A DNA stretch of 64,000 bases from Escherichia phage vB_EcoM_005: sequence record MK295203, one strand, 5' to 3'. Shown piece by piece: positions 22 to 61,311 of the stretch; position 1 is the stretch's first letter, and every line of letters begins with the position of its first letter. The position numbers and the translations under genes are program-made. Under the pieces are notes generated by a model that worked only from the letters and a program-made list of their open reading frames with translations, did not search any database and was not told the origin of the DNA.

Positions 22-471
22 ATGGCTTACTCAGGGAAATTTAAACCTACAAACTTACAAAAATATAAAGGTGACTGGAAGAAAATCCAATATCGTTCCT
101 CTTGGGAAGCATGGTTTATGCGTTGGCTTGACAACCATCCTAATGTAGTCCAGTGGAATTCAGAAGAGGTAGTCATTCCTTACTTTTGCAATGCCGAAGG
201 AAAGAAAAGACGATATTTTATGGACTTCTGGGTTAAATTTGATACAGGTCAACAATTCTTTTTTGAAGTCAAACCTTTTAAAGAAACCCATGCTCCTGCT
301 GTTCCTGCTAAAATGACTACGGCTGCTAAAAAGAGATATATCAACGAACACTATACTTGGTCTGTTAATACCGATAAGTGGAAAGCAGCTAAATCTACAG
401 CAGATAAAATGGGTATCACGTTTAGATTGATTACCGAACATTCACTGAAAAAATTAGGATGGAAAGGATGA
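22..471 (+). CDS. head completion protein gp4-like (assigned by size and synteny)
   Basis: 149-aa ORF, SD aaggagg 8 nt upstream; sits upstream of gp2/gp3/gene 1 as in T4; sequence itself not recognised. Confidence 0.5.
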
Positions 472-1295
472 GTATATTTTCCTACATCAATGAGGCTACT
501 GAAACCACAAAGGGTTCCAAGCCTACTCGTTCAGAACAACAATGGATAGCATTAGGTGTCCAGTATGCCGAAGCTAAAGCAAAGGGCGTCTCGGCTAAGA
601 AATTCGCTGAAGATAAAGGCATTAAGTATTCTAGCTTTACATCTGCGATGTCTCGATACTCGAGTCGAATTAAAACTGCTGTACAGGTTGAAAAACTTCA
701 GAAGAAACCTGGCAATAAATTAACCAAAGCCGAACGTCAATTAATTTTGGTGAATAGTTTTAGAAAGAGTATTCGTGATAAGATTGCTAACGAAGGTGCT
801 GCTGTAAACAATAAATCAGCTAAATGGTTTACAGAAACATTAAAGAAAGGAATTCGCGGACACCAGGTATCTAAACCATCTCCTGGTAAGCTTTATGCTT
901 ATATCTATGATGCCAAACACAAGGATACCCTACCATACTGGGACAAATATCCTTTAATCATTTATCTTGGGTTAGGTAAGCATAATTTAATGTACGGGCT
1001 GAACTTACACTATATCCCACCTAAAGCACGACAGCAATTTCTGGAAGAATTGCTGAAGCAATACGCGAGTACGCCTACCATTACGAACTCGACTAAATTA
1101 AAAATCGATTGGAGCAAGGTAAAAGGATTCGCCGGAGCCGATGTGATGATTAAGGCTTATATCCCTGGAAATATCAAGGGACCTTTAGTAGAGATAAAAC
1201 CGTCTGATTGGGCTAATGTAATAGGATTACCACTTCAGCAATTTGTATCTAAAGGTAAGCGTTACTCAGCTCAGAAAGTATGGAAGAATTCATAA
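459..1295 (+). CDS. DNA end protector gp2-like (size and synteny)
   Basis: 278-aa ORF overlapping previous gene; T4 gp2 is about 274 aa and lies between 4 and 3. Confidence 0.5.
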
Positions 1296-1377
1296 TCTAT
1301 TATCCCGGCCAGTTATTGAATGGAACAGACCTAGGACCATTATACACTGTCTGGGACTTAAGCAATATAGGAACCCT

Positions 1378-1968
1378 ATGAACGGTTTATTTAACCAAAC
1401 TAACACTACTAACTTTATCTTAGAGGTTAGTGACGCAGGAATGACGCAGGCATTCAAATTGAACGTACAAGATGTAACACTACCGGGTATCCATATTCCG
1501 GTCTCAGACGTCCCAGGATCGACCCAGGGCATACATCGTGCTAAGCTGCCAGGTTCTACGGTAGAATTCGATCCATTGATTGTGAACTTTCTTGTAGACC
1601 GTGAATTGAAATCATGGCTTGACGTTTATAAGTGGATGTTGTCATTAAACAACTACGTAACACATGATTCAGAAGCCTGGCATCCTAAAGGTCAACCTGA
1701 AGCTATCACCCTCCACATCCTTGATAACAACAAACAAAAAATCGTAATGAGCATTCATTACTACGGTGGTTGGCCATCTGACCTCTCGGAAATCCAGTAC
1801 TCTTATAAAGAGGATTCTGACCCAGCGATAATCGCTACAGCAACATTCAACTTCAAATCGTTTGCTGTAGAAATAGATGGTACAATAGTTACAGGTCGTC
1901 CACAAATTGATTCGTATGCCGAACAACGTGTGGCTCGTATGTCTATGCATCCATCTATGAGAAAATAA
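1378..1968 (+). CDS. tail completion / sheath stabiliser gp3-like (synteny)
   Basis: ORF starting MNGLFNQ after agga SD; stop overlaps the ATG of gene 1. Confidence 0.45.
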   Translation: MNGLFNQTNTTNFILEVSDAGMTQAFKLNVQDVTLPGIHIPVSDVPGSTQGIHRAKLPGSTVEFDPLIVNFLVDRELKSWLDVYKWMLSLNNYVTHDSEAWHPKGQPEAITLHILDNNKQKIVMSIHYYGGWPSDLSEIQYSYKEDSDPAIIATATFNFKSFAVEIDGTIVTGRPQIDSYAEQRVARMSMHPSMRK

Positions 1969-2721
1969 TGAAACTAATATCAATTGTAGGAATCAAACGT
2001 AGCGGTAAGGATACCGTTGCTAACTATGTAATCGAAAATATGGATTCGGTAAAATTTCAGCTCGCAGGTCCTATTAAAAAGTATCTGGCCGAAGCCTATG
2101 AATACATCTCTGATGACCCTGTATTCGACCGTAGTTATATGCCTAAACTCGATTTTAACTGTTTTGAAGGTATCGGTTACGACCGTGAAGAAATCCTTCC
2201 TTTAAAACCATATGATGTTATTGATATCTTTGAAAATGCTATTGTCAAATTGAATAATATCCTTCCTATTCCAGGAATGGACGTTCGTACCGCATATCAT
2301 TATGGTCTTACCCCAGTCCAGTATCTGTCTGAAGAAACAAAAGACCGACTGTTTGAAGTAATAAATAAAAATAACAATTGGTCAGTACGTCGTCTCATGC
2401 AGACCCTTGGGACTGATATTATTGTTAACCAATTTGATAAGATGTATTGGGTTAAGTTGTTCGCTTTAGACTATTTTGATAAAATATACTCTGATGCGAA
2501 ATACTATGTCGTACCTGATGTTCGTCAAACACACGAAATTGATTCGCTCAGAGCGATGGGTGCTACGATTATTCATGTAGTTCGCGCTGAAACCGGTCAA
2601 GTACAAGACTCGCACATCACTGAAGCGGGTCTACCAATTTTACCTGGTGACGTTGTTGTTGAAAATAACGGCACTCTTTCTGAACTATACACCACTATTG
2701 ATAAATTATTAGGAAATAAAA

Positions 2722-2729
<8 letters not shown>
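1968..2729 (+). CDS. 1: deoxynucleoside monophosphate kinase (gene 1)
   Basis: P-loop GIKRSGKDT; strong match to recalled T4 gp1 (WSVRRLMQ.LGTD, MYWVKLFALDY, HITEAGLP). Confidence 0.9.
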
Positions 2730-3422
<693 letters not shown>

Positions 3423-3427
3423 AAAGT

Positions 3428-3456
3428 TGTTTACAAGGTCTATAGGCATGATACTA
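3428..3456 (+). promoter_or_regulatory. T4-type early promoter (GTTTAC -35, 17-bp spacer, TACTAT -10) with inverted repeat ggtctatag/ctatagacc
   Basis: aaaagttGTTTACaaggtctataggcatgaTACTATagacctatcaa; A-rich upstream. Confidence 0.7.
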
Positions 3457-3494
3457 TAGACCTATCAAAACAAACTAACCAAACGGAAATCAAA

Positions 3495-3719
3495 ATGAAA
3501 ACTTATCAAGAATTTATTACCGAAGCTAAAAGACATGAAGATGAACTGCCAATTGTTACAAAAACCTTTGATGGCACACTGGCTGATTTTAAAAAAGTCC
3601 CTAGTGATAAGCTTGCTAAATTGACTGGCTCTATCAATGAAAAAGGTGGCAAGGTCACGTTTTCTGCTGGCGGCATAGCCAATCTTAAAAAACTTTTGAA
3701 AGCCGCTGGCGCTGAATAA
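3495..3719 (+). CDS. internal protein (IP)-like with capsid targeting sequence
   Basis: N-terminus MKTYQEFITEA matches the T4 IPI/IPII/IPIII capsid-targeting signal cleaved by the prohead protease; small basic protein. Confidence 0.7.
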   Translation: MKTYQEFITEAKRHEDELPIVTKTFDGTLADFKKVPSDKLAKLTGSINEKGGKVTFSAGGIANLKKLLKAAGAE

Positions 3720-3720
3720 A

Positions 3721-3993
3721 ATGAAATCATACCAAGAATTTATCACTGAATCTATTCTTAATGAAGAAGTAAAAATTAACAAATCTGTTAAGACCGTGAT
3801 TGATAATATAAATCATCTCTATAACATTGATTTGACTAATCACGTGACTTTAGGCAATAAGCGAAACTTTTTTGTTTTTGATACTTCAGAACTTGACCAG
3901 AATCAAATTAACAATATTGAACGTTTTGCTAATGAAAAAGGACTGCGTCACGAAACGGCTGGTTATAAAAAGTATGCAATTTATCTAAAATAA
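3721..3993 (+). CDS. internal protein (IP)-like with variant capsid targeting sequence
   Basis: N-terminus MKSYQEFITES; immediately follows previous IP-like gene. Confidence 0.6.
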   Translation: MKSYQEFITESILNEEVKINKSVKTVIDNINHLYNIDLTNHVTLGNKRNFFVFDTSELDQNQINNIERFANEKGLRHETAGYKKYAIYLK

Positions 3994-3995
3994 TT

Positions 3996-4025
3996 GTTTA
4001 CAACGGGCTCTAGTGGTGATACTAT
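3996..4025 (+). promoter_or_regulatory. T4-type early promoter
   Basis: GTTTACaacgggctctagtggtgaTACTATagccctatcaa; spacer and downstream repeats partly palindromic. Confidence 0.65.
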
Positions 4026-4061
4026 AGCCCTATCAAAACAAATGAGTGATTGGAGAATAAA

Positions 4062-4247
4062 ATGAAACGTTGCGAATTAATTAGAAATGTTACTGCACTG
4101 GCCGCCGTTACTGCTTTTGGCTTTAGTATGTTTGCAGGATTCATGCTCGATATGCTTTCAACTTCCGAGAATATAATCTCTTTAGTAGTGGCATTTTTAA
4201 TTGGTTCAATCTCTTTTGTTATGGATAAAATCTCTAAAGGTGAGTAA
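4062..4247 (+). CDS. small membrane protein, hypothetical
   Basis: SD ggaga then ATG; two hydrophobic segments. Confidence 0.5.
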   Translation: MKRCELIRNVTALAAVTAFGFSMFAGFMLDMLSTSENIISLVVAFLIGSISFVMDKISKGE

Positions 4248-4248
4248 A

Positions 4249-4629
4249 ATGTATAAAGTGTATGCGGACTACCAAGCTAATCCATCCGAAAAACCAGATT
4301 GTCAAATTGGATGGGCGCATGACACCCTGCTTGAAGCGGTAGATGAAGCTCAAAAATTAGGGTATAGTTATGTAGATATTGTTCAACCAAATGGAACAGT
4401 TATTACTCTTGAAGAATTCAAGAATATCAAAACAAACTTTTTGCTCTTTGCTGGTGATAACTATTATCCTCGTGGCGGTTATGCTGACTTAATTGCAAAA
4501 GCGGCGTCTGAAGATGAACTACGCGATATCATTAAAGAAAACGAGAATAAGCCTCAATATGGGTCTAATCGTTTTGACTGGTGGCAAATTGTTAATGCCA
4601 ATACCCACACAATTGTAGACGAGGGTTAA
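4249..4629 (+). CDS. hypothetical protein
   Basis: 126-aa ORF MYKVYADY..., SD gtgag upstream, tightly packed with neighbours. Confidence 0.5.
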   Translation: MYKVYADYQANPSEKPDCQIGWAHDTLLEAVDEAQKLGYSYVDIVQPNGTVITLEEFKNIKTNFLLFAGDNYYPRGGYADLIAKAASEDELRDIIKENENKPQYGSNRFDWWQIVNANTHTIVDEG

Positions 4630-4914
4630 ATGCTATACGTTAAGGTTACTAATCCAGAGAATGGCTATAACTCCGATCAGGTTGCAGCTGAGTTGTTGAT
4701 TCGCAATTATGGCAAAGATGCTGTTCTTGATGTTCAACAGGTTAATATAGGACGTAGTTCAAGCGATGTTAAGCTCAAAGTTAACAGCCATCGTTATAAT
4801 TCTGTTAACTTTACTTTTTATACCGCAACTGAAAACGGATTGGTCGAATACGACATCTTTAAAAATCCTTTGAAGATTGCTTCTATTAAACTTGATTACA
4901 TTAATATGCTTTAA
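4630..4914 (+). CDS. hypothetical protein
   Basis: 94-aa ORF, start overlaps previous stop (TAAATG). Confidence 0.5.
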   Translation: MLYVKVTNPENGYNSDQVAAELLIRNYGKDAVLDVQQVNIGRSSSDVKLKVNSHRYNSVNFTFYTATENGLVEYDIFKNPLKIASIKLDYINML

Positions 4915-5043
4915 GAATTATGTGATATTATTACTCTATCATTAATACCCTCTATTACCAAAGGTTCTTCCCTCAAAGAACCTTTCATAATAGACAAGGT
5001 CTATTAATCAAACTTACTTTACTTAATTTTATTTGAGGTGTTT

Positions 5044-5310
5044 ATGTTAGTATTAAAATTAGCTTTTTATGACCCAGAAACCAAGACAACAACTACCAAA
5101 CGTTGTTCTATTTCATATGACTGCCAATTTGGCGAAGTTGAGACTGACGGCGAGCCCTTTATGGCAATTGCCGATAGCACATTCGCTAAACCAAAAATAA
5201 TTCCACTAGTTAACGCTGCGGCTTATCTGGTTGCTCCTGAAGAAATGACTTATCATACAATTCAGCACATGGCTAAAGACGATAATGCTCCTGCTGGATT
5301 TGTAATTTAA
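5044..5310 (+). CDS. hypothetical protein
   Basis: ORF after gaggtg SD; ends 5 nt before first tRNA. Confidence 0.45.
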   Translation: MLVLKLAFYDPETKTTTTKRCSISYDCQFGEVETDGEPFMAIADSTFAKPKIIPLVNAAAYLVAPEEMTYHTIQHMAKDDNAPAGFVI

Positions 5311-5315
5311 ATTAA

Positions 5316-5389
5316 GGCCCTGTAGCTCAATGGTTAGCAGCAGTCCCCTCATAAGGGAAAGGTTACCGGTTCAAATCCGGTCTGGGTCA
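5316..5389 (+). tRNA. tRNA with CAU anticodon (Met or lysidine-modified Ile)
   Basis: ggccctgtagctcaatggtt...ccggttcaaatccgg: acceptor stem, D-loop AATGG, T-loop TTCAAATCC, anticodon loop cuCAUaa; no encoded CCA. Confidence 0.7.
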
Positions 5390-5397
5390 TTAACTAC

Positions 5398-5472
5398 GTC
5401 CCGCTGGTGTAATGGATAGCATACGATCCTTCTAAGTTTGCGGTCCTGGTTCGATCCCAGGGCGGGATACCA
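5398..5472 (+). tRNA. tRNA-Arg (UCU)
   Basis: gtcccgctggtgtaatggatagc...ggttcgatcccagggcgggatacca: acceptor stem pairs, T-loop GGTTCGATCC, anticodon loop cuUCUaa, encoded CCA. Confidence 0.75.
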
Positions 5473-5707
5473 AATGAAGACTATTATATAGTCAAGCCGT
5501 CGTATGAAGGACTGATTACCAGCATTCACCGGCGCAACAAACAAGAAACCGGGTCGCTACCGGTAAGTCGTCGGACTGAAGTTCCCTGAATAAGGACTGG
5601 CATTAACAAATCTTTACGATCTGTTAACGTCCCCTTATCTCACAGCTGAAACGGCGCACCGAACACTTGCCTAGCAGGTGGAACCCCGACAAGGTTACCC
5701 TAGGTTA
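5473..5707 (+). ncRNA. candidate small stable RNA(s) downstream of the tRNA genes
   Basis: 235 nt, GC-richer than surroundings, no ORF over 30 codons, ends at a strong terminator; T4 encodes stable RNAs C and D at the equivalent position. Confidence 0.3.
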
Positions 5708-5708
5708 A

Positions 5709-5737
5709 AGGCCCTTCCGAAAGGTTGGGCCTTTTTT
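5709..5737 (+). terminator. rho-independent terminator
   Basis: aggcccttccgaaaggttgggcc + TTTTTT; identical 30-nt copy at 6853-6882. Confidence 0.75.
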
Positions 5738-5774
5738 GTATAAATAGATAAGTTAATTAACACAGGAAACAATA

Positions 5775-6248
5775 ATGAAAACTTACAATGAATTTTTGAA
5801 CGAAAGCGTTCTGACTGAAGCCTCCGCTTCAGATGTTCGCGCTGCAGCAACTGCTGCTATTAAAGCCGGTAAATATTCTTATAAAGATGCTTCTGATGAA
5901 TCTCGGTACAAGTTCTACGACGATATGAGAGCTGAAGGCTTTGTGGGTAACTATGTTACCACCGCCTGGAAAAGCATGGTTGCTTCTGGTGCAGCTTTCG
6001 AAAAAGCTTCTGGTAAACCCGCTCCTAAGGCCGACCCTAAAGCAGCACAAGAAAAAAATATTGCTAAAGGAATTATCTCTAAGTATGAAGCAATTCTTAA
6101 AGAGCTTTTAGTAATCAAAACAGAAGGCCAGAAACTGGCACGAGCACATAGCTTCAAAGATAATCCACATGCTCACGACTTAGAGTATGTTGAAGATATT
6201 CAGAAAATCATCAAAGACCGTATCTGGTCTGCTAAACAAATCAAATAA
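5775..6248 (+). CDS. internal protein (IP)-like with capsid targeting sequence
   Basis: N-terminus MKTYNEFLNESVLTEA; 157 aa, lysine/alanine rich. Confidence 0.6.
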   Translation: MKTYNEFLNESVLTEASASDVRAAATAAIKAGKYSYKDASDESRYKFYDDMRAEGFVGNYVTTAWKSMVASGAAFEKASGKPAPKADPKAAQEKNIAKGIISKYEAILKELLVIKTEGQKLARAHSFKDNPHAHDLEYVEDIQKIIKDRIWSAKQIK

Positions 6249-21553: not shown

Positions 21554-21760
21554 TTGTTCTTTTGCCTATCATGGATGGTGTGGCTTACTAAAAGAGAGAT
21601 AGAGGTTGTAGCAGCGACGTATAATGCTAATAATAAAGAGTGTCCTAATAAAAATGGGATGGATTTAATTAAAGCGCATTATATGCTTTCCATTACCTCG
21701 CCTATACAGAGGAATTGGGTTGAATATAATTTTAACGACGTGTTCTATTCTTATTTGTAG
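21554..21760 (+). CDS. hypothetical small protein
   Basis: 68-aa ORF, hydrophobic N-terminus. Confidence 0.35.
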   Translation: MFFCLSWMVWLTKREIEVVAATYNANNKECPNKNGMDLIKAHYMLSITSPIQRNWVEYNFNDVFYSYL

Positions 21761-44199: not shown

Positions 44200-46812
44200 A
44201 TGCAAGAATTCTATTTGACAGTCGAACAAATCGGTGATAATATTCTCGAACGTTACATCGATAAAAATGGTAACGAACGTAGTCGTGAAGTTCCTTACAA
44301 GCCTACAATGTTTATGCATGCTAATCCAGAGCAAGCCGTAAAATACATTGATATCTATGGTAAGGGTTGTGTTAAGAAAGAATTCGACTCTATGCGTGAT
44401 GCATCCCAATGGATGAAACGTATGGACGATATGGGTCTCGAAGCCCTGGGTATGGACGACTATAAATTAGCCTATTTGTCTGATACCTATCGTAAAGAAA
44501 TCAAATACGATTCTTCTAAGATTCGTATTGCTAACTTCGACATCGAGGTAACATCTCCTGATGGATTCCCTGAACCAGCTCAGGCTAAACATCCTATCGA
44601 TGCCATTACCCACTACGACTCGATTGACGATAAATTCTATGTATTCGACCTTTTAGTTTCACCTTATGGTACCGTTGAAGAGTGGTCTATTAAAATCGCT
44701 GAGAAACTCCAAGAAGAAGGTGGTGACGAAGTTCCACAAGAAATCATTGACAAAATCGTTTATCTTCCGTTTAATTCCGAAGAAGAAATGATGCTTGAGT
44801 ATCTGAATTTCTGGCAGCAGAAAACTCCTGTTATTTTGACTGGTTGGAACGTTGAGTCGTTTGACGTACCATACGTTTATAACCGTCTGAAAAATCTGTT
44901 TGGTGAGAACACTGCTAAGCGATTAAGCCCACACCGTAAGACTCGTGTTAAAGTTATCGAGAACATGTATGGTGCTCGTGAAATTATTACACTGTTCGGT
45001 ATCTCTGTTCTGGATTATATCGACCTTTATAAAAAATTCAGCTTTACCAACCAGCCTTCTTATTCTTTGGATTATGTTTCTGAATATGAATTGAAAGTAG
45101 GTAAGTTGAAATATGATGGTCCAATCTCCAAGTTACGTGAGACGAACCACCAACGATATATTTCCTATAACATTATCGACGTATATCGTGTAGTGCAGAT
45201 TGATATGAAACGCCAGTTCATTCTTCTGAGTTTGGACATGGGTTATTATGCTAAGATGCAGATTCAGTCGGTGTTCAGTCCAATTAAGACTTGGGACGCT
45301 ATTATCTTTAATAGCCTTAAAGAACAAGGCAAGGTCATTCCACAAGCTCGTTCACACGTGGTCCAACCTTATCCTGGTGCTTTCGTTAAGGAACCTATTC
45401 CTAACGCATACAAATATGTAATGAGTTTTGACCTTACATCTCTGTACCCGAGTATTATTCGACAAGTGAATATAAGCCCAGAGACCATCGCAGGCACATT
45501 CGCTAATGCACCGATACATGAATATATTGCCGGAACAGCTCCGCGTCCTAGCGACGTCTACAGTTGCTCTCCTAACGGCATGATGTACTATAAAGACCGT
45601 GATGGTGTGATTCCTACAGAAATCACTAAGGTGTTCTTACAACGTAAAGAACATAAAGGTTATATGCTTGCAGCTCAACGTAATGGCGAGTTAATTAAAG
45701 AAGCATTAGAAAATCCTAATCTGTCAGTTGATAGTCCACTGGATATCGATTATCGTTTTGACTTCTCTGACGAAATCAAAGCCAAGATTAAAACGCTGTC
45801 AGCACCTTCTTTAAAAGAAATGTTGTTCAGAGCCGAACGTACTGAAGTCGCAGGTATGACTGCTCAGATTAACCGTAAGTTGCTTATCAACTCCCTTTAT
45901 GGTGCACTTGGTAACGTATGGTTCCGTTACTATGACCTCAGGAACGCAACTGCAATCACACTGTTTGGTCAAATGGCCCTCCAATGGATTGAACGTAAGG
46001 TTAACGAATATCTGAACAGCGTGTGTAAGACTGAAAATCAGAAGTTCGTGCTCTATGGTGATACTGACTCCATTTATGTTAAGGCAGATGCAATCATCAA
46101 TAAAGTAGGCGAAGATAAATTCCGTGACACTAACCACTGGGTCGACTTCTTAGATAAATTTGCACGTGAACGTATGGAACCGGCTATTGATGCAGGCTTC
46201 CGTGAGATGTGCGAGTACATGAACAACAAACAACACTTGATGTTCATGGACCGAGAAGCTATCGCAGGTCCTCCACTTGGTTCTAAAGGTCTTGGTGGAT
46301 TCTGGACAGGCAAGAAACGTTATGCACTTAACGTTTGGGACATGGAAGGCACTCGTTATGCCGAACCACACTTGAAAATCATGGGTCTCGAAACTCAGAA
46401 ATCAAGTACACCTAAAGCGGTTCAGAAAGCTCTGAAAGAATGTATCCGTCGTATGCTTCAGGAAGGCGAGGCATCTTTGCAAGAATATTTCAAACAGTTT
46501 AATAAGGAATTTAACGAACTGGACTATGTAAGCATTGCAGCAGTATCCAGTGCTAACAACATCGAGAAATATAATGAAGGCGGATTGGTATATGTACTGC
46601 CACTTAAAGAAGGCAACCCATTCGGTGAAGCCTGTATGGCATGGCCGTCAGGTATTGAACTTCCGATTCAGATTCGTGACCAAGTCCTCCGTTGGATGGA
46701 CTACAACGTACTGTTCCAAAAGACCTTTATCAAGCCTCTGACTGGTTTTACCGAGTCTGCTAAAATCGACTACGAGAAAAAAGCAACATTATTTGACATG
46801 TTTGACTTTTAA
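44200..46812 (+). CDS. 43: DNA polymerase gp43 (family B)
   Basis: exo motifs FDIEV, YNIID; pol motifs DLTSLYPSII, KKRY (GKKRYALNVWDMEG), YGDTDS; very close to recalled RB69/T4 gp43. Confidence 0.95.
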   Translation: MQEFYLTVEQIGDNILERYIDKNGNERSREVPYKPTMFMHANPEQAVKYIDIYGKGCVKKEFDSMRDASQWMKRMDDMGLEALGMDDYKLAYLSDTYRKEIKYDSSKIRIANFDIEVTSPDGFPEPAQAKHPIDAITHYDSIDDKFYVFDLLVSPYGTVEEWSIKIAEKLQEEGGDEVPQEIIDKIVYLPFNSEEEMMLEYLNFWQQKTPVILTGWNVESFDVPYVYNRLKNLFGENTAKRLSPHRKTRVKVIENMYGAREIITLFGISVLDYIDLYKKFSFTNQPSYSLDYVSEYELKVGKLKYDGPISKLRETNHQRYISYNIIDVYRVVQIDMKRQFILLSLDMGYYAKMQIQSVFSPIKTWDAIIFNSLKEQGKVIPQARSHVVQPYPGAFVKEPIPNAYKYVMSFDLTSLYPSIIRQVNISPETIAGTFANAPIHEYIAGTAPRPSDVYSCSPNGMMYYKDRDGVIPTEITKVFLQRKEHKGYMLAAQRNGELIKEALENPNLSVDSPLDIDYRFDFSDEIKAKIKTLSAPSLKEMLFRAERTEVAGMTAQINRKLLINSLYGALGNVWFRYYDLRNATAITLFGQMALQWIERKVNEYLNSVCKTENQKFVLYGDTDSIYVKADAIINKVGEDKFRDTNHWVDFLDKFARERMEPAIDAGFREMCEYMNNKQHLMFMDREAIAGPPLGSKGLGGFWTGKKRYALNVWDMEGTRYAEPHLKIMGLETQKSSTPKAVQKALKECIRRMLQEGEASLQEYFKQFNKEFNELDYVSIAAVSSANNIEKYNEGGLVYVLPLKEGNPFGEACMAWPSGIELPIQIRDQVLRWMDYNVLFQKTFIKPLTGFTESAKIDYEKKATLFDMFDF

Positions 46813-53133: not shown

Positions 53134-53455
53134 TTTATCTGATTTAGATAATTTCGTTAAAGATACCGAAGAGGGTCCTAGTGACCCTCGGTATTATGAG
53201 AAATCATTAGATATAATCCGTAAGTCAATGGGTTCTGTTAAGCAGGAAATTATGCTTACTTTACCCGATGGCACTGCTCACATCGTTTATGTGATGAATA
53301 TTGTTATTGAGAAAGATGGAAAAGTGTCGGTTGATTTCGGAACACCTTCCGAAGACCGAAAAGAAGAGCTAGCGCTTCATGTAGAAAAATGTGTTACAAT
53401 GCAAATACAAGAAGAACTGGATAAAATTAAATCTAAGAGGTGGTGGAAATGGTAG
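53126..53455 (+). CDS. 40: gp40-like head vertex assembly protein (synteny)
   Basis: 109-aa ORF between uvsX and 41. Confidence 0.5.
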   Translation: MTDLSDLDNFVKDTEEGPSDPRYYEKSLDIIRKSMGSVKQEIMLTLPDGTAHIVYVMNIVIEKDGKVSVDFGTPSEDRKEELALHVEKCVTMQIQEELDKIKSKRWWKW

Positions 53456-54881
53456 AAACTATTTTGGCTCAACTGCTAGGCAATAGTGATTATTTCACTA
53501 AGGTCTGGCCTTATATGAATGATTCTTATTTTGACCAGGGTCCTGCAAAGACCCTTTTCAAAGAAATTAAAAAACACGTCAATGAATATAATGCAGTGCC
53601 TTCTAAGAACGCATTGAGCATTGCATTAGATAACAGTACGCTTTCAGAAGTTGAACATCAGGGCGCTAAAGAGCTTTTAAGTTCACTGAATGCCGGACCT
53701 GAAGACCAAGAATGGTTGGTTAAAGAGACGGAGAAATACGTTCAGAAAGCAGCGATGTATAATGCAACTTCAAAAATCATTGAAATCCAAACTAATGCCG
53801 ACCTTCCGGTTGAGCAACAAAATAGAAAACTTCCAGGTATTGGTGCTATTCCTGGATATCATGCGTGATGCATTATCGATTTGTTTCGATTCTGAATTAG
53901 GTCATGACTGGATGGATGACTATGAAGAACGATTCAAAAGTTATTCCGATAAAGCACGTAAGGTTCCGTTCCGTCTTAATATTCTGAATAAGATTACCAA
54001 GGGTGGTGCCGAGTTTGGTTACTGAAAACGTATTGTTGGCAGGAACAAACGTAGGTAAGTCTCTTGGCCTGTGTTCATTGGCTGCTGATTACCTTCAATC
54101 AGGTTACGATGTTCTTTATATCTCCATGGAGATGGCAGAGGAAGTATGTGCTAAGCGTATAGATGCCAACCTTCTGGATGTATCGCTGGATGATATCGAT
54201 GATGGTCATGTCTCTTGGCCTGAATATAAAGCTAAGATGGATAAATGGCGTTCAACTGCTACCTTAGGTCGTTTAAAGATTAAACAGTATCCTACTGGTG
54301 GTGCTAATGCCGATACCTTCCGTGCATTATTAAACGAATACAAGCTCAAACAAAACTTTGTGCCGCAGGTCGTTATCGTCGACTACTTGGCCATTTGTGC
54401 ATCGTCTCGTACTAAAGTTTTCTCTGAAAACAGTTACGGATTGATTAAGATGGTAGCCGAAGAACTACGTGGACTGGCAGTAGAGAAGAAATTATTGTTG
54501 TGGACAGCAGCCCAGACTACTCGTGGTGCGAACGTTGCGGCCGAAATCGATATGGCTGATATTGCTGAATCATTTGGTATTGCACATACTGCAGACTTCA
54601 TGTTAGGTGTGGTCGAGACAGAAGAGTTTGCTCAGATGGGTATGCAAATGGTTAAGCAGCTTAAATCTCGTTACGGCGATAAGAGCTACTACAACAAATT
54701 TAAGATTGGCGTTAAGAAAGGAAACCAACGTTGGTATGAAGTTGAAGACGATTCCAACCCAGGCCCGGTGAACACTGTTCGTGAGGCTACAGGTGAGATG
54801 AATCGTCAAGCCGAGGTCAATCGTCAGACGCGTGTTAATAGAAGTGATTTAGACGATTTAGCAGCATCTATCAAATTTTAA
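53440..54881 (+). pseudogene. 41: replicative helicase gp41 (DnaB-like), split across three frames by two +1 shifts
   Basis: segments 53440-53868, 53870-54025 and 54003-54881 each align with consecutive parts of recalled T4 gp41 (..GAIP|DIMR.. and ..GGAE|TG.. junctions); Walker A GTNVGKS in third segment. Confidence 0.85.
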
Positions 54882-57210: not shown

Positions 57211-57246
57211 TATAATGGCTCTATTAATTTAGAGTATGATAAGTAC

Positions 57247-57777
57247 ATGGGTTCAGGAGGGCCTTTAAGTAGGGCAAAGGAAAAATACGGGCTGGAAAAT
57301 TTCGAAAGAGAAATTCTAGAGTTTTTCCCTAATGAAGACCTAATGAACGAAGCTGAGGCAGCTATAGTAACTAAAGAATTTATTAAAAGACCCGATGTTT
57401 ATAATGCTGTGCCGGGCGGCAGAAGTTTTAGAGTAGGCCCGACGGAAAATTATGATTCTAAACGGCATTCAGAAGTCCAGATAAAAAGCTGGGATAATCC
57501 TGAAAAAAGGGCCAAGCAAGCCAAAACTATAAAAGCTATCGCATGGAAAGAATGGGATAATTTAGAGGAAGTAAAAATCCGACATAAAGAATCCTGCAGT
57601 AAAGCACAAAGAAAACATAAAGCCTGGAAAGATTATAATGTATTAAAAGAGATTTGGGTTAAATTAGGAAAACCTGGATACGGTAGGTTTAATAATGAAT
57701 TAATTAAGCTTGGTTACGAAAAAAGAAATTACCAAAGAATGGTAGATGCTTTTAATAAAGAGGAAGAACTAGTATGA
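57247..57777 (+). pseudogene. GIY-YIG homing endonuclease, N-terminally truncated
   Basis: begins at the YIG half (KYMGSGG...GLENFEREILEFF) with no GIY strand upstream; C-terminal module shared with the two HNH endonucleases. Confidence 0.5.
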
Positions 57778-58041
57778 GTTTTGTAGACAGAGAATTTGCT
57801 TTAAGAGCTTTTCAAACACTGCCAAAATTTAGACAAGTTACCGGAAGCGATTTTAAGCTTAACGCAAGGTGCCCTATTTGTGGTGACTCACAGAAAGACG
57901 AACATAAAGCTCGTTTTTGGGCTTATCCTGTGAATGATGGTGGCATTATGTTGCACTGCTTCAATTGCGATGCTAGTTTAGGAATTAAGAAGTATCTATA
58001 CGAATACGAGCCTGATTTATATCGTTAAGATGCCTGTCATC

Positions 58042-58245
58042 GAAAAGCTTAATTTCTGTGAACGATTAGATAGAATGCCAAACGACCATCCTATTATCAA
58101 ATATGTGACACTACGTTGCATTCCTGAAAACAAATGGAATCGTGAAAAGCTTAATTTCTGTGAACGATTAGATAGAATGCCAAAGGACCATCCTATTATC
58201 AAATATGTAACACTACGTTGCATTCCTGAAAACAAATGGAATCGC
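58042..58245 (+). repeat. tandem duplication, 2 x 102 bp (in-frame, 34 codons)
   Basis: 58042-58143 and 58144-58245 differ at ~3 positions. Confidence 0.9.
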
Positions 58246-58248
58246 TTA

Positions 58249-58597
58249 TGGTTTACTAAAGAATGGCCGGCATTGGTGAACTCTGTCAATCCAGGGACCT
58301 ATTCTAAATTGAAATGCCTGAGCCTCGTTTGGTTATTCCAATTTTCAATAAGAATAAACAAATTGAAAGTTTTCAGGGTCGAGCCTTACGTAAAGATGCT
58401 CCACAAAAATATATTACAATACGTTGTGGTTTACTAAAGAATGGCCGGCATTAGTTAACTCTGTGAATCCAGGGACCTATTCTAAAGAAATGCCTGAACC
58501 TCGTTTGGTTATTCCAATTTTCAATAAGAATAAACAAATTGAAAGTTTTCAGGGTCGAGCCTTACGTAAAGATGCTCCACAAAAATATATTACAATA
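58249..58597 (+). repeat. tandem duplication, 2 x ~172 bp, copies differ by a 2-nt indel
   Basis: 58249-58421 and 58427-58597; first copy has ctaaattgaaatg vs ctaaagaaatg. Confidence 0.9.
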
Positions 58598-58693
58598 AGT
58601 TGGTGTGGGTAATGGAAGGCCCTATTGACTCTTTGTTTGTTCCGAATGCAATAGCAATTACTGGCGGGTCGTTGGACTTGGCTATGGTTCCAT

Positions 58694-58788
58694 GTAAAGA
58701 AACTCGTGCCTGGGTAATGGACAATGAACCCCGCCATCCGTTGTAAAGAAACACGTGCCTGGGTAATGGACAATGAACCCCGCCATCC
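58694..58788 (+). repeat. tandem duplication, 2 x 46 bp with 49-bp period (frameshifting)
   Basis: gtaaagaaac(t/a)cgtgcctgggtaatggacaatgaaccccgccatcc at 58694 and 58743. Confidence 0.9.
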
Positions 58789-58817
58789 TGACACAATTAA
58801 GCGTATGCAACGATTAG

Positions 58818-59471
58818 TTGATGCTGGCGAAAGGGTTCTATTCTGGGACAAGAGGAAAATTAAGAGGTTCTAAGCGGTCTTTATCATATTATACGGAAGA
58901 ACACCATGTTATACCTAGATGTATGAATGGTTCTGATGATAAAAACAATTTAGTTGCTTTATTGCCAAGAGAACACTTTGTAGCTCATAGGCTTTTAACA
59001 AAAATATATCCCGAAGTAAAAGGTCTACATTATGCTGTTAATTTAATGAGATATAATAAAGGAGTTAAATTAACTAGTAGAACTATAGCCACGTTAAGAG
59101 AAAATAACGCTAAAGCATTTTCAGGAAAAAATAACCCGATGTTTGGTAAACCTTCCTGGATTAGAGGGATGAAAACTCCTGAAGAAACTAAAGCCAAAAT
59201 GCGCCTGGCTCATAAAGATAAAATTATATCTGATGAAGCCAAGGCCAATATGAGTAAAGCTAGAAAAGGAAGATTTAGTGGTAAAGATTCCCCTAGATAT
59301 GGTTTGCCAAATCCTAGGCGTGGAGAAATATGGAATAGTTACGATATGCTTTATGAATTATGGGTTTACAATAATAAACCTAAACGCACCAAATTTAATA
59401 AAATAGCTGTTGATAATGGATATCCTGATATTTGTTATCGACGAATGATAGAAAACTTTAATAGGAAATAA
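58818..59471 (+). CDS. HNH homing endonuclease (Mob-like); 5' end uncertain
   Basis: HNH motif EEHHVIPRCMNGSDDKNNLVALLPREHFVAH; NUMOD-like repeats; track ORF start overlaps primase-derived sequence. Confidence 0.65.
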   Translation: MMLAKGFYSGTRGKLRGSKRSLSYYTEEHHVIPRCMNGSDDKNNLVALLPREHFVAHRLLTKIYPEVKGLHYAVNLMRYNKGVKLTSRTIATLRENNAKAFSGKNNPMFGKPSWIRGMKTPEETKAKMRLAHKDKIISDEAKANMSKARKGRFSGKDSPRYGLPNPRRGEIWNSYDMLYELWVYNNKPKRTKFNKIAVDNGYPDICYRRMIENFNRK

Positions 59472-59475
59472 TATA

Positions 59476-59613
59476 ATGGCATTTTTTAACGAATGTAGTG
59501 GTTTGATTTCTGGTGTTGATAAAGCTGAGGAAGCTTATTTTAATGCTCTGATTCACGAAGATAATTTATTTATTCGCTTTAATCTAACAGTTTATAATTA
59601 TCTAACTTATTAA
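59476..59613 (+). pseudogene. dCTPase (gene 56) N-terminal fragment
   Basis: MAFFNECSGLISGVDKAEEAYFNALIHED then unrelated tail; 54 nt identical to the start of the next copy. Confidence 0.6.
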
Positions 59614-59636
59614 TGAATTGAAAAAGGAAAAATATA

Positions 59637-60056
59637 ATGGCACACTTTAACGAATGCGCAAACCTGATTGCTGGTGTTGATAAAGCTGAGGAAGCTTATT
59701 TTAATGCTCTGATTCACGAAGATAAGGACCCTCTGCAGGTTATGTTGCGTGAACAGAAAGATTGTATTGACGATGAATTCCGTGAACTTCTGACTTCCCT
59801 CGGTGAAATGTCTAAAGGTGAGAAAGATGCATCTGCTGTATGGAAAAAATGGAAAGCCCGTTACCCGGAAGCACAAGCCAAACCTATTTCAGAAATGTCT
59901 CCTGAAGACCAGCTTGAAATTAAATTTGAACTCATTGATATTATGCACTTCGTATTCAATATGGCTATTGGCTTGAATATGTCGGCTGAAGAAATGTTTA
60001 AACTTTATTACCTGAAAAATAAACACAACTTTGAACGCCAGGACAATGGATATTAA
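59637..60056 (+). CDS. 56: dCTP pyrophosphatase gp56 copy A (MazG-like), apparently lacking a middle segment
   Basis: MAHFNECA..I.GVDKA...DPLQVML then REQKDCIDDEFRELLTSLGEMS.GEK.ASAVWKKWKARY...EMSPEDQLEIKFEL.D..HFV.NM..GL.M.AEE.FKLYYLKNK.NF.RQD.GY, matching recalled T4 gp56 ends. Confidence 0.75.
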   Translation: MAHFNECANLIAGVDKAEEAYFNALIHEDKDPLQVMLREQKDCIDDEFRELLTSLGEMSKGEKDASAVWKKWKARYPEAQAKPISEMSPEDQLEIKFELIDIMHFVFNMAIGLNMSAEEMFKLYYLKNKHNFERQDNGY

Positions 60057-60106
60057 TTTCAAATCCGTTCTTAAAGAAAAGTTCCCGCAATGGGAACTTT
60101 TAGAAG
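60008..60106 (+). repeat. 99-bp direct repeat, copy 1 (3' end of dCTPase copy A plus junction)
   Basis: identical to 60430-60528. Confidence 0.9.
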
Positions 60107-60480
60107 ATAAACCTGAATATAACCGTCATCCTGATGACTTGGCTACTGCAGGTGAAGTTGTTGATTGGTTGCGCAATCAGAAAGATTATATTGATGATGA
60201 ATTCCGCGAACTTCTGACTTCTCTTGGTGGCATGAGCAATGGCGAAAAAGATGCGAGCGCTGTATGGAAGCCTTGGAAAGCTCAACATGCTGAACGTCGT
60301 GAAACCCTGATTAACGATTTGTCTCCTGAAGACCAGCTCGAAATTAAATTCGAAATGATTGATATTCTGCACTTTGTTCTGAATATGTTCCAAGGTCTTG
60401 GACTGACTGCTGAAGAAATCTTTAAACTGTATTACCTGAAAAATAAACACAACTTTGAACGCCAGGACAATGGATATTAA
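60046..60480 (+). CDS. dCTP pyrophosphatase gp56 copy B (diverged paralog/allele), lacking the N-terminal segment
   Basis: YNRHPDDLATAGEVVDWLRNQKDYIDDEFRELLTSLG... ; ~75 percent nt identity to copy A body, identical 99-bp 3' end. Confidence 0.7.
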   Translation: MDINFKSVLKEKFPQWELLEDKPEYNRHPDDLATAGEVVDWLRNQKDYIDDEFRELLTSLGGMSNGEKDASAVWKPWKAQHAERRETLINDLSPEDQLEIKFEMIDILHFVLNMFQGLGLTAEEIFKLYYLKNKHNFERQDNGY

Positions 60481-60528
60481 TTTCAAATCCGTTCTTAAAG
60501 AAAAGTTCCCGCAATGGGAACTTTTAGA
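60430..60528 (+). repeat. 99-bp direct repeat, copy 2
   Basis: identical to 60008-60106; runs into the start of the HNH ORF. Confidence 0.9.
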
Positions 60529-61311
60529 GGTCATGATTACTTAAAAATTATAGATAAGTATAAACTAAACGTCCATACCAAATCTAAAACTGAAGCTCAT
60601 CATATACTTCCGAAGTGTGCATTTCCAGAATACAGCGATTTTAAAATCTCTCCTTGGAATAGGGTGTATCTTCCTATATACCAACACATATATGTTCATT
60701 ATCTTTTGTGCTCAACTAAGGTGTCGGGTTTGCTTAATGCATTCCAGAGAATGACACTAACAAATAGTGCCCAGTTTAAGAAGCTTTCTGATTTAGAGAA
60801 AGACCTTACTATTAAGTTATGGGCCGATAAACGTGGGGAGTGGATAGAGCAAGACATTCTCCGTAAAAGAAAATCCTTTATGTATTCTAATTTTGATTTC
60901 TGGTATAATGACTGGATTTCGCGGGATATGCCTCGCTATCGAAGATATTGGGGAGTTTTGGTTGAAGAAAATAATCCGGAAGTTTTAGGTACCCACAAAA
61001 ATAGTTTATTGACAGTGGTAAAAGATTTTTGTTTGAGATACGCAGAAGAACATAATTTATCTGAAGAAGAAGTTTTGAGTCTTCAAAAATTAAAACAGTC
61101 TTCAGAAAAAGCTTTAAAAGATAAAGGAAAAACTTTAAGTAAAACTGCTAGAGGCAATCAACTCAAATGGAATTATGAAACTGAGCTTAGGAATTTATGG
61201 ATTGCTAATAACAAACCAAAATATGTGAATTTCAGAAAGCTAGTGGTTAGCTTAGGCTACCCGGATGAAAATTATATAAACATGATAAAGAGGTTTGAAA
61301 ATGGGTTCTGA
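60514..61311 (+). CDS. HNH homing endonuclease (Mob-like)
   Basis: HNH motif EAHHILPKC...NRVYLPIYQHIYVHY; C-terminal module similar to the 58818 endonuclease; ATG lies inside the 99-bp repeat. Confidence 0.65.
   Translation: MGTFRGHDYLKIIDKYKLNVHTKSKTEAHHILPKCAFPEYSDFKISPWNRVYLPIYQHIYVHYLLCSTKVSGLLNAFQRMTLTNSAQFKKLSDLEKDLTIKLWADKRGEWIEQDILRKRKSFMYSNFDFWYNDWISRDMPRYRRYWGVLVEENNPEVLGTHKNSLLTVVKDFCLRYAEEHNLSEEEVLSLQKLKQSSEKALKDKGKTLSKTARGNQLKWNYETELRNLWIANNKPKYVNFRKLVVSLGYPDENYINMIKRFENGF

Follow-up and report, generated by a model that had tools for sequence, protein, structure and literature searches.

Interleaved natural alleles in the scrambled primase gene 61 of Escherichia phage vB_EcoM_005: a very probable artefact of joining mixed-population fragments

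The gene 61 locus and its neighbors

The sequence analyzed here is a 64,000-nucleotide stretch of Escherichia phage vB_EcoM_005 (sequence record MK295203), referred to below as the window. It belongs to a T4-like phage of the genus Dhakavirus and is 95 to 99% identical to IME08, E33, QL01, Bp7, and JS98. Outside the junctions listed in the following sections, the window resembles a coherent, distinct Dhakavirus (95 to 99% identity to relatives), and no panel genome was closer than about 99% outside mobE. The gene order at the locus, 61.1 - 61 - mobE - 56 - soc, is shared with the gene 61 (58/61) locus of IME08, E33, QL01, and JS98, where it reads 61.1 - 61 - (mobE) - 56 - soc. Pieces B to G of the region described below share 97 to 100% nucleotide identity with that locus, but the relatives have a single unbroken primase and here it is scrambled. 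The spacer between genes 61 and 56 is variable among relatives and holds mobE, a gene for a 497-amino-acid GIY-YIG protein, a methyltransferase gene, or nothing; in some relatives, segF-type or HNH genes follow gene 56.

The gene had been assigned at first pass to primase gene 61, and this assignment held for a T4-like Dhakavirus, with fragments of the region matching Pfam DNAG_N and phrog_47 DNA primase. The region was mapped by k-mer diagonals and junction alignments onto the unbroken primases of IME08 (locus L001, 2547-3578) and E33, which served as the reference; for the alleles, each piece was compared with related loci, at first 8 and later 17. Relative to the intact 342-codon primase of the dhakaviruses IME08, E33, and QL01, the primase region is a chain of seven pieces (A to G), which lie among their neighbors as follows.

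57235-57777, + strand: Seg-like GIY-YIG homing endonuclease gene fragment, between 61.1 and 61 (PHROGs phrog_314, E = 1.6e-19)
57774-58025, + strand: piece A, primase codons 1-84, zinc-binding region (phrog_47 DNA primase)
58026-58142, + strand: piece B, codons 113-151, IME08-like allele (IME08 L001 2885-3001, 98.3%)
58144-58421, + strand: piece C, codons 118-209, E33/QL01-like allele, with TT at 58309-58310 (reference 2901-3176)
58425-58598, + strand: piece D, codons 152-209/210, IME08/AnYang-like allele (reference 3004-3177)
58599-58739, + strand: piece E, codons 228-275, TOPRIM EGPID motif (reference 3232-3373)
58742-58852, + strand: piece F, codons 260-296, ending ...FWDK (reference 3327-3437)
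58853-59471, + strand: piece G, mobE-type HNH homing endonuclease gene without its first 38 nt (IME08 L001 3876 onward, 99.4 to 100%)
59476-60483, + strand: gene 56 (dCTPase), three different alleles in tandem, directly downstream of mobE
59476-59564, + strand: gene 56 allele 1, 5′ end of the mobE-carrying type (100% to L021)
59567-60056, + strand: gene 56 allele 2, AnYang-like, with a 99-nt excision at 59745 (96% to AnYang)
60104-60483, + strand: gene 56 allele 3, QL01-like, 3′ two-thirds (96.8% to QL01/L019)

Primase gene 61 as a chain of jumps

Followed from its 5′ end, the region runs through codons 1-84, skips 83 nt to codons 113-151, steps back 101 nt to codons 118-209 (with the additional TT), steps back 173 nt to codons 152-209, skips 54 nt to codons 228-275, steps back 47 nt to codons 260-296, and finally skips 438 nt to enter mobE at codon 13. 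Backward jumps appear as repeats and forward jumps as deletions. The first-pass annotation had recorded the duplications and missed the forward jumps of 83, 54, and 438 nt among them. The 83-nt deletion (codons 85-112) lies at 58025/58026 between pieces A and B, and the 54-nt deletion (codons 210-227) at 58598 between pieces D and E. The 438-nt deletion at 58852/58853 runs from primase codon 297 through the last codon, 342, and the 61/mobE spacer to the first 38 nt of mobE, which are also lost, so the primase C terminus is missing, as had been noted.

The claim that the primase is truncated where the HNH endonuclease begins stood in part. The primase-like frame does end after ...FWDK at 58852, but the endonuclease gene does not start there, since mobE has lost its own 5′ end. 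Alignment by tblastn covered MobE residues 12 to 218, and matches to HNH, NUMOD3, and phrog_655 were found.

The primase junctions share 0 to 3 nt and are either blunt or carry a stray T, TT, CGT, or GT, such as the GT at 58740-58741 between pieces E and F. Six of the nine piece boundaries that could be placed unambiguously fall on codon boundaries (roughly P = 0.04). This is no more than suggestive of a protein-guided process, but the 99-nt excisions found elsewhere in the window are of mixed phase.

Tandem repeats and reading frames

Three tandem duplications had been reported in the primase, and Tandem Repeats Finder placed all three: array 1 at 58042-58244 (period 102, 2.0 copies, 98% match, score 392), array 2 at 58249-58602 (period 176, 2.0 copies, 96% match, 1% indel, score 657), and array 3 at 58693-58788 (period 49, 2.0 copies, 97%, score 185). 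A second repeat search recovered the same three pairs. These arrays were the only tandem repeats with a score of ≥60 that Tandem Repeats Finder detected in the whole 64-kb window, and they are thus far beyond chance.

The details given for each duplication were also borne out. The 102-nt unit is in frame, and the open reading frame at 58030-58437 carries EKLNFCERLDRMP.DHPIIKYVTLRCIPENKWNR twice. The duplication first described as about 172 bp long, with copies differing by a 2-nt indel, corresponds to the period-176 array, in which copy 1 contains the 2-nt insertion TT at 58309-58310, so that the spacing is 178 and then 176; this TT was found in no relative compared. The 46-bp duplication with a 49-bp period corresponds to array 3.

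An intact T4-type gp61 is encoded by a continuous open reading frame of about 342 codons, with a zinc-binding N terminus, a TOPRIM core, and a C-terminal region. Here, the primase frame is broken at seven places, and at least five short open reading frames in shifted frames span the region. No second primase copy was found within the 64-kb window.

Comparison with the gene 61 locus of close relatives, which had been proposed as a check, gave one uninterrupted primase of 342 to 343 codons in every one of about 50 genomes and in 10 further loci. The latter are independent loci (NCBI, Logan, and ENA) with an identical UvsX, and all 10 have a 342-amino-acid primase, a 476-amino-acid gp41, and a 903-amino-acid gp43. 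The junction of the 176-nt repeat had no exact match in viral, genome, or metagenome contig collections, and neither the scrambled open reading frame, the Seg-like open reading frame, nor one neighboring open reading frame had an exact match in the protein index.

Allelic origin of the repeat copies

The pieces alternate between two alleles, with B and D resembling IME08/AnYang and C and E resembling E33/QL01. Piece B was at most 95.7% identical to panel genomes other than IME08. Piece C was 98.2% identical to E33/LQ5/QL01/L019 compared with 95.7% to IME08, and piece D was 98.9 to 99.4% identical to IME08/AnYang/L022 compared with 97.7% to E33. Piece E showed 100% identity to E33/LQ5/QL01/L019 and only 91.5% to IME08. 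Piece F was 100% identical to two loci from Logan/NCBI (L021 and L022).

In the reference, piece D follows directly on piece B, with B ending at 3001 and D resuming at 3004. Piece C shares 101 nt with piece B and 173 nt with piece D, and this overlap with both neighbors gives rise to both the 102-nt and the 176-nt repeats. Given the adjacency of B and D, and with C being the same stretch of the other allele, the two apparent duplications reduce to a single interleaving of two alleles. Piece F similarly re-covers 47 nt of piece E, which accounts for the 49-nt repeat.

The repeat copies differ at nine sites, every one of them a third codon position in the primase frame (chance about (1/3)^9 = 5e-5), and at least seven of the nine have both alleles segregating among known dhakaviruses. 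As read from these positions, the copy differences are of the kind filtered by selection in functional genes, unlike sequencing errors or decay after duplication. The copies show that at least two primase haplotypes contributed to the region.

These observations bear directly on replication slippage or unequal recombination, which had been put forward as one source of the near-identical copies. Under that explanation, the repeats would have arisen in situ by slippage or unequal crossing-over in a single genome, followed by decay of a dispensable gene. The copies are indeed arranged head to tail and, at 94 to 98% identity, look superficially young. However, direct repeats are absent at the boundaries, where only 0 to 3 nt are shared and stray T, CGT, or GT residues occur. 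All copy differences are synonymous and most are alleles of other phages, whereas random decay of a pseudogene would give the reverse pattern, and since the copies carry synonymous natural alleles, a simple origin by slippage or by unequal crossing-over in a single genome is excluded. Moreover, a single inserted fragment of another allele accounts for both the 102-nt and the 176-nt repeats, and the interleaved deletions are left unaccounted for. In-situ duplication is therefore regarded as extremely unlikely.

Damage elsewhere in the window

A megablast walk along the window against IME08, E33, and AnYang identified about 21 sites, unique to the window, at which exactly 99 to 100 reference nucleotides are missing. 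Their junctions lie on the window near the following positions.

11521, 13143, 15049, 19929, 22139, 23753, and 23870
24613, 27012, 28544, 29883, 30454, 31660, and 32920
39398, 39875, 44017, 46586, 51605, 59745, and 62810

Larger losses, of about 209 nt each, were found at two more sites, 18747 and 38759. The excision junctions are blunt, and most carry one stray G or T that matches neither flank. Genes hit include those for gp43 polymerase (near codon 816), gp46 (twice), nrdC (codons 2-34), and nrdH, and some excisions span gene boundaries. In a direct search, the 99 nt absent at 46586 were retained in 49 of 49 relatives covering the query.

Three simple accounts of the excisions were considered, and the first two were rejected. 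Dropped fixed-width lines or blocks would leave a periodicity, and none was detected for moduli of 50 to 6000 in either window or reconstructed source coordinates. Insertions or errors in IME08 are contradicted by the agreement of E33 and AnYang and by the 49 of 49 relatives that keep the 99 nt at 46586. A simple model of polymorphic "bubble" sites at single-nucleotide polymorphisms was unsupported; relatives are invariant at the bases adjacent to the excisions, and neither flank has the stray base.

A +G at 53854 and a +T at 54019 break the essential helicase gene 41 into three frames; these insertions were found in no other genome examined that covers gene 41. A clear switch of parental allele at the two frameshifts was not found. 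A like pair of +T insertions occurs at 21589 and 21754, exactly 165 nt apart; the gene 41 insertions are likewise exactly 165 nt apart, and a further 165-nt piece lies at 58144-58308. Immediately downstream of mobE, the three gene 56 alleles in tandem generate repeats with spacings of 161 and 424 nt.

The uniform excisions raise the question of an alteration made after assembly, by deliberate or accidental corruption or by simulation, in which 100-nt blocks were excised, bases inserted, and fragments shuffled. Replacement of a uniform 100 nt by a single G or T at irregular positions resembles a programmed edit rather than sequencing noise, and the +1 pairs 165 nt apart (21589/21754 and 53854/54019), together with the 165-nt piece at 58144-58308, have the same character. 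Against this, a simple editing script would copy exactly, and copies with different natural alleles need real data from more than one variant. The excision positions also lack the fixed-width-line or block periodicity already looked for. Alteration after assembly, in which case the structure would come from neither the phage nor the assembler, is considered very unlikely, although some of the damage may have been introduced at that stage.

Origin of the scrambled primase

The scrambled primase is very probably an artefact, produced when fragments from a mixed population were joined into a chimera or when the sequence was later corrupted, rather than a biological rearrangement. This assessment draws on features observed directly in the record: how the region divides into pieces, which alleles the copies come from, how bluntly the pieces are joined, and how many other errors the window contains. 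Mis-assembly of reads from a heterogeneous population had been the other source proposed at first pass, and it is the one favored here, in view of the different alleles in the copies, the window-wide excisions, the gene 41 frameshifts, and the tandem gene 56 alleles.

In the proposed course of events, short fragments from at least two, and probably three, co-occurring Dhakavirus variants would have been placed in reference order and joined end to end, with their overlaps and gaps left as they were. Where fragments overlapped, a tandem duplication would result whose copies carry the alleles of two variants; where fragments failed to meet, sequence would be missing. The 61.1-61-mobE-56 locus would be affected most, as variants differ structurally there in whether they carry homing endonuclease genes, and mixed-population assemblies fragment into small pieces at sites of this kind. 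The joining may have been carried out by assembly or scaffolding software or by some later processing step. The fixed loss of 99 to 100 nt points to an algorithmic constant, for example, a k-mer overlap or a read length. However, the primase jump sizes (83, 101, 173, 54, 47, and 438 nt) depart from the 99- to 100-nt rule seen elsewhere, and one simple algorithmic cause thus cannot account for all of the damage. In the real phages, the 342-codon primase is most likely intact.

A documented class of assembly error, false heterotype duplication (Rhie et al. 2021, PMC8081667), yields duplications in which the copies bear variants specific to different haplotypes. In such duplications, both haplotypes are linearized and seen as a partial tandem gene duplication, the copies differ by haplotype-specific variants, and the error arises where haplotypes diverge most. 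The primase region agrees on each count. Its copies carry variants of different haplotypes, it lies at a locus that varies in structure among relatives, flanked by homing endonuclease genes that some have and others lack, and other independent assembly errors occur in the same sequence (the excisions, gene 41, and gene 56). The published cases come from diploid vertebrate assemblies and involve large blocks, usually with gaps between them, whereas the pieces here measure 111 to 278 nt, derive from a mixed population of phages, and abut with no gaps between them, interleaved with stray bases and missing sequence.

The main value of the finding is as a warning. Annotated at face value, the region would be taken for a primase pseudogene or for rampant slippage beside homing endonucleases, and the whole sequence needs re-assembly before gene-level inference. 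Three checks for false duplications in mixed-population phage assemblies follow from the case: synonymous differences between copies at known polymorphic positions, switches between parental alleles, and uniformly broken essential genes elsewhere in the sequence.

Comparison with genuine rearrangements in T4-like phages

A real rearrangement would require a mixed infection in which a break made by a homing endonuclease was repaired by replication (break-induced or synthesis-dependent) that switched templates forwards, backwards, and between two genomes, leaving a primase pseudogene. Several features of the locus would suit this course. The Seg-like GIY-YIG and mobE HNH genes flank the region, the spacer between genes 61 and 56 carries variable cargo in relatives, and two parental alleles are present among the pieces, as co-infection would give. 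Tandem amplification driven by a homing endonuclease is genuine in T6 (PMC13096335), and conversion of flanking sequence along with the endonuclease gene is typical of homing (PMC2988022). However, repair at the primase cannot explain about 21 excisions, the gene 41 frameshifts, and three gene 56 alleles. Six template switches within 830 nt, together with truncation of both flanking endonucleases, would be extraordinary; microhomology of the kind reported in T6 is missing from the junctions, and no second occurrence was found in any collection searched. On balance, a real rearrangement of this kind is judged very unlikely.

The biological reading in its full form, a natural Dhakavirus whose primase was shredded by template switching between co-infecting genomes and which replicates without a primase of its own, has a very slim chance of being correct. 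Viable T4 primase mutants are known from laboratory work, with gene 61 mutants showing DNA delay, and a phage without primase is thus not impossible. If true, the region would be the fossil of a microhomology-independent, multi-template break repair in a T4-like phage.

The closest biological parallel, SegB in T6 (PMC13096335), likewise places tandem repeats beside a homing endonuclease gene in a T-even-type phage. In T6, the 718-bp unit includes the endonuclease and a tRNA, the junctions have microhomology, many copies are present, and the amplification was confirmed by a PCR ladder and long reads and confers a selective benefit. The vB_EcoM_005 arrangement, known from assembled sequence, has two copies only, of different alleles, no microhomology at the junctions, and a destroyed gene. 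Amplification by a homing endonuclease would be expected to give several identical copies of a unit carrying the endonuclease or cargo, joined at microhomology, but the units here are internal primase fragments of 47 to 176 nt.

Free-standing homing endonucleases are also known to create genes in pieces, as in T4 39/60 with mobA and in Aeh1 nrdA, which is split by mobE (PMC2988022). Those cases resemble the present one in that homing endonuclease genes lie near the interruption of a T4-like phage gene for replication or nucleotide metabolism. There, no coding segment is lost and the separate parts come together as an active protein; here, the primase lacks codons 85-112, 210-227, and 297-342, has other codons twice, and is broken in frame. 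A functional split gene would retain all segments, each with an open frame and its own start, which does not describe the region.

The Seg-like endonuclease and the divergent primase 5′ end

By tblastn, the Seg-like open reading frame upstream of the primase was 35% identical to a homing endonuclease of an Aeromonas phage and 28% identical to T4 SegA, and no DNA match to the gene was found in the phage collection. Its alignments begin near query residue 10, and the fragment lacks its 5′ end, which would hold the first of two GIY-YIG motifs. Upstream, IME08-like sequence breaks off at 57234/57235. The missing 5′ part, about 25 codons plus spacer, might fit another 99-nt excision. At its other end, the Seg-like stop codon overlaps the primase start codon (ATGA).

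Within primase piece A, 57782-57979 is a divergent allele, and the first 206 nt of the primase have only 70 to 73% DNA but 82 to 83% protein identity to all Dhakavirus primases. From 57980, identity jumps to 98 to 100%, and 57980-58025 is ordinary Dhakavirus sequence. Together, the Seg-like gene and the recoded primase 5′ end fit what is expected for a free-standing homing endonuclease whose flank has been co-converted and resists cleavage (PMC2988022). This new Seg-like endonuclease upstream of a primase with a recoded 5′ end, in a hot spot for homing endonucleases, is probably genuine biology, and it is an ordinary addition to an already known kind.

The scrambled stretch as a whole lies between two homing endonuclease genes, a setting in which breaks and recombination during co-infection are expected; this speaks against an artefact, and a biological origin is conceivable.

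Uniform excisions across the window

Approximately 21 blunt excisions, each of exactly 99 to 100 nt, were identified in the window by comparison with every relative examined, and at most of the junctions a single extraneous G or T was present. Genes struck by these excisions included those for the gp43 polymerase, gp46 (twice), nrdC, and nrdH, among others. Two larger losses were found in the same comparison.

Junctions of 99- to 100-nt excisions (approximate positions): 11521, 13143, 15049, 19929, 22139, 23753, 23870, 24613, 27012, 28544, 29883, 30454, 31660, 32920, 39398, 39875, 44017, 46586, 51605, 59745, 62810
Larger losses of ∼209 nt each: 18747 and 38759

The positions of the window junctions were irregularly spaced, and a search for periodicity among them found none. 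Excisions of such uniform size are the signature of an algorithmic error.

Frameshifts in gene 41 and recurring lengths

53440-54881: gene 41, essential replicative helicase, broken into three frames

The frame breaks in gene 41 result from two 1-base insertions, a G at 53854 and a T at 54019, which were absent from all other examined genomes covering this gene; the resulting fragments shared 99 to 100% protein identity with gp41 of the related Dhakavirus IME08. The separation between the two insertions is exactly 165 nt. This length recurs in a second, window-specific pair of T insertions (21589 and 21754, exactly 165 nt between) within the homologue of IME08 orf95, and likewise in the primase gene, where the stretch from the stray T at 58143 to the TT at 58309 (58144-58308) spans 165 nt. 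Other piece lengths that recurred were 111 nt (two instances) and 116 to 117 nt (two instances).

Three alleles of gene 56 in tandem

Between 59476 and 60530, gene 56 (dCTPase) is present as three distinct natural alleles in tandem, which accounts for the repeats spaced 161 nt and 424 nt apart.

Allele 1: 5′ end, mobE haplotype
Allele 2: AnYang-like copy carrying a 99-nt excision
Allele 3: QL01-like 3′ part

The triplication of gene 56 is an artefact of the same type as the scrambled primase gene.

Homing endonuclease genes flanking genes 61 and 56

57235-57979: Seg-like GIY-YIG homing endonuclease gene and recoded primase 5′ end, between 61.1 and 61
60514-61311: second ORF encoding an HNH homing endonuclease (265 aa; phrog_655)
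60077-60101 and 60501-60525: 25-nt palindromic hairpin, AAAAGTTCCCGCAATGGGAACTTTT

The Seg-like gene is new, its product sharing ≤35% protein identity with anything in the phage collection. Its stop codon overlaps the primase start (ATGA), and the primase 5′ end that follows is recoded, with 70 to 73% DNA identity and 82% protein identity. Together, these features are probably a real homing cassette accompanied by the tract that was co-converted with it; the cassette lacks its 5′ end, being cut at 57234/57235.

The second HNH ORF was inserted immediately 3′ of the gene 56 stop codon, and 11 nt of the end of gene 56 are repeated on its far side. Its best DNA matches were phage DK-13 (∼90%) and Tequatrovirus phages (∼84%), rather than most Dhakaviruses. 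The hairpin lies in both copies of a 125-nt repeat, where gene 56 ends and the HNH cassette starts; it may serve as a terminator or be a structure associated with an endonuclease.

In independent genomes and contigs of Dhakaviruses (L015 to L024, loci encoding an identical UvsX protein), the spacer between the primase gene and gene 56 is a hot spot for cargo, with the following contents.

Variant: mobE, 218 aa
Variant: LEM-3-like GIY-YIG protein, 497 aa, and two small ORFs
Variant: 186-aa ORF and D12-class adenine methyltransferase
Variant: empty

In one of these contigs, L020, the DNA polymerase gene 43 was also interrupted by inserted ORFs.
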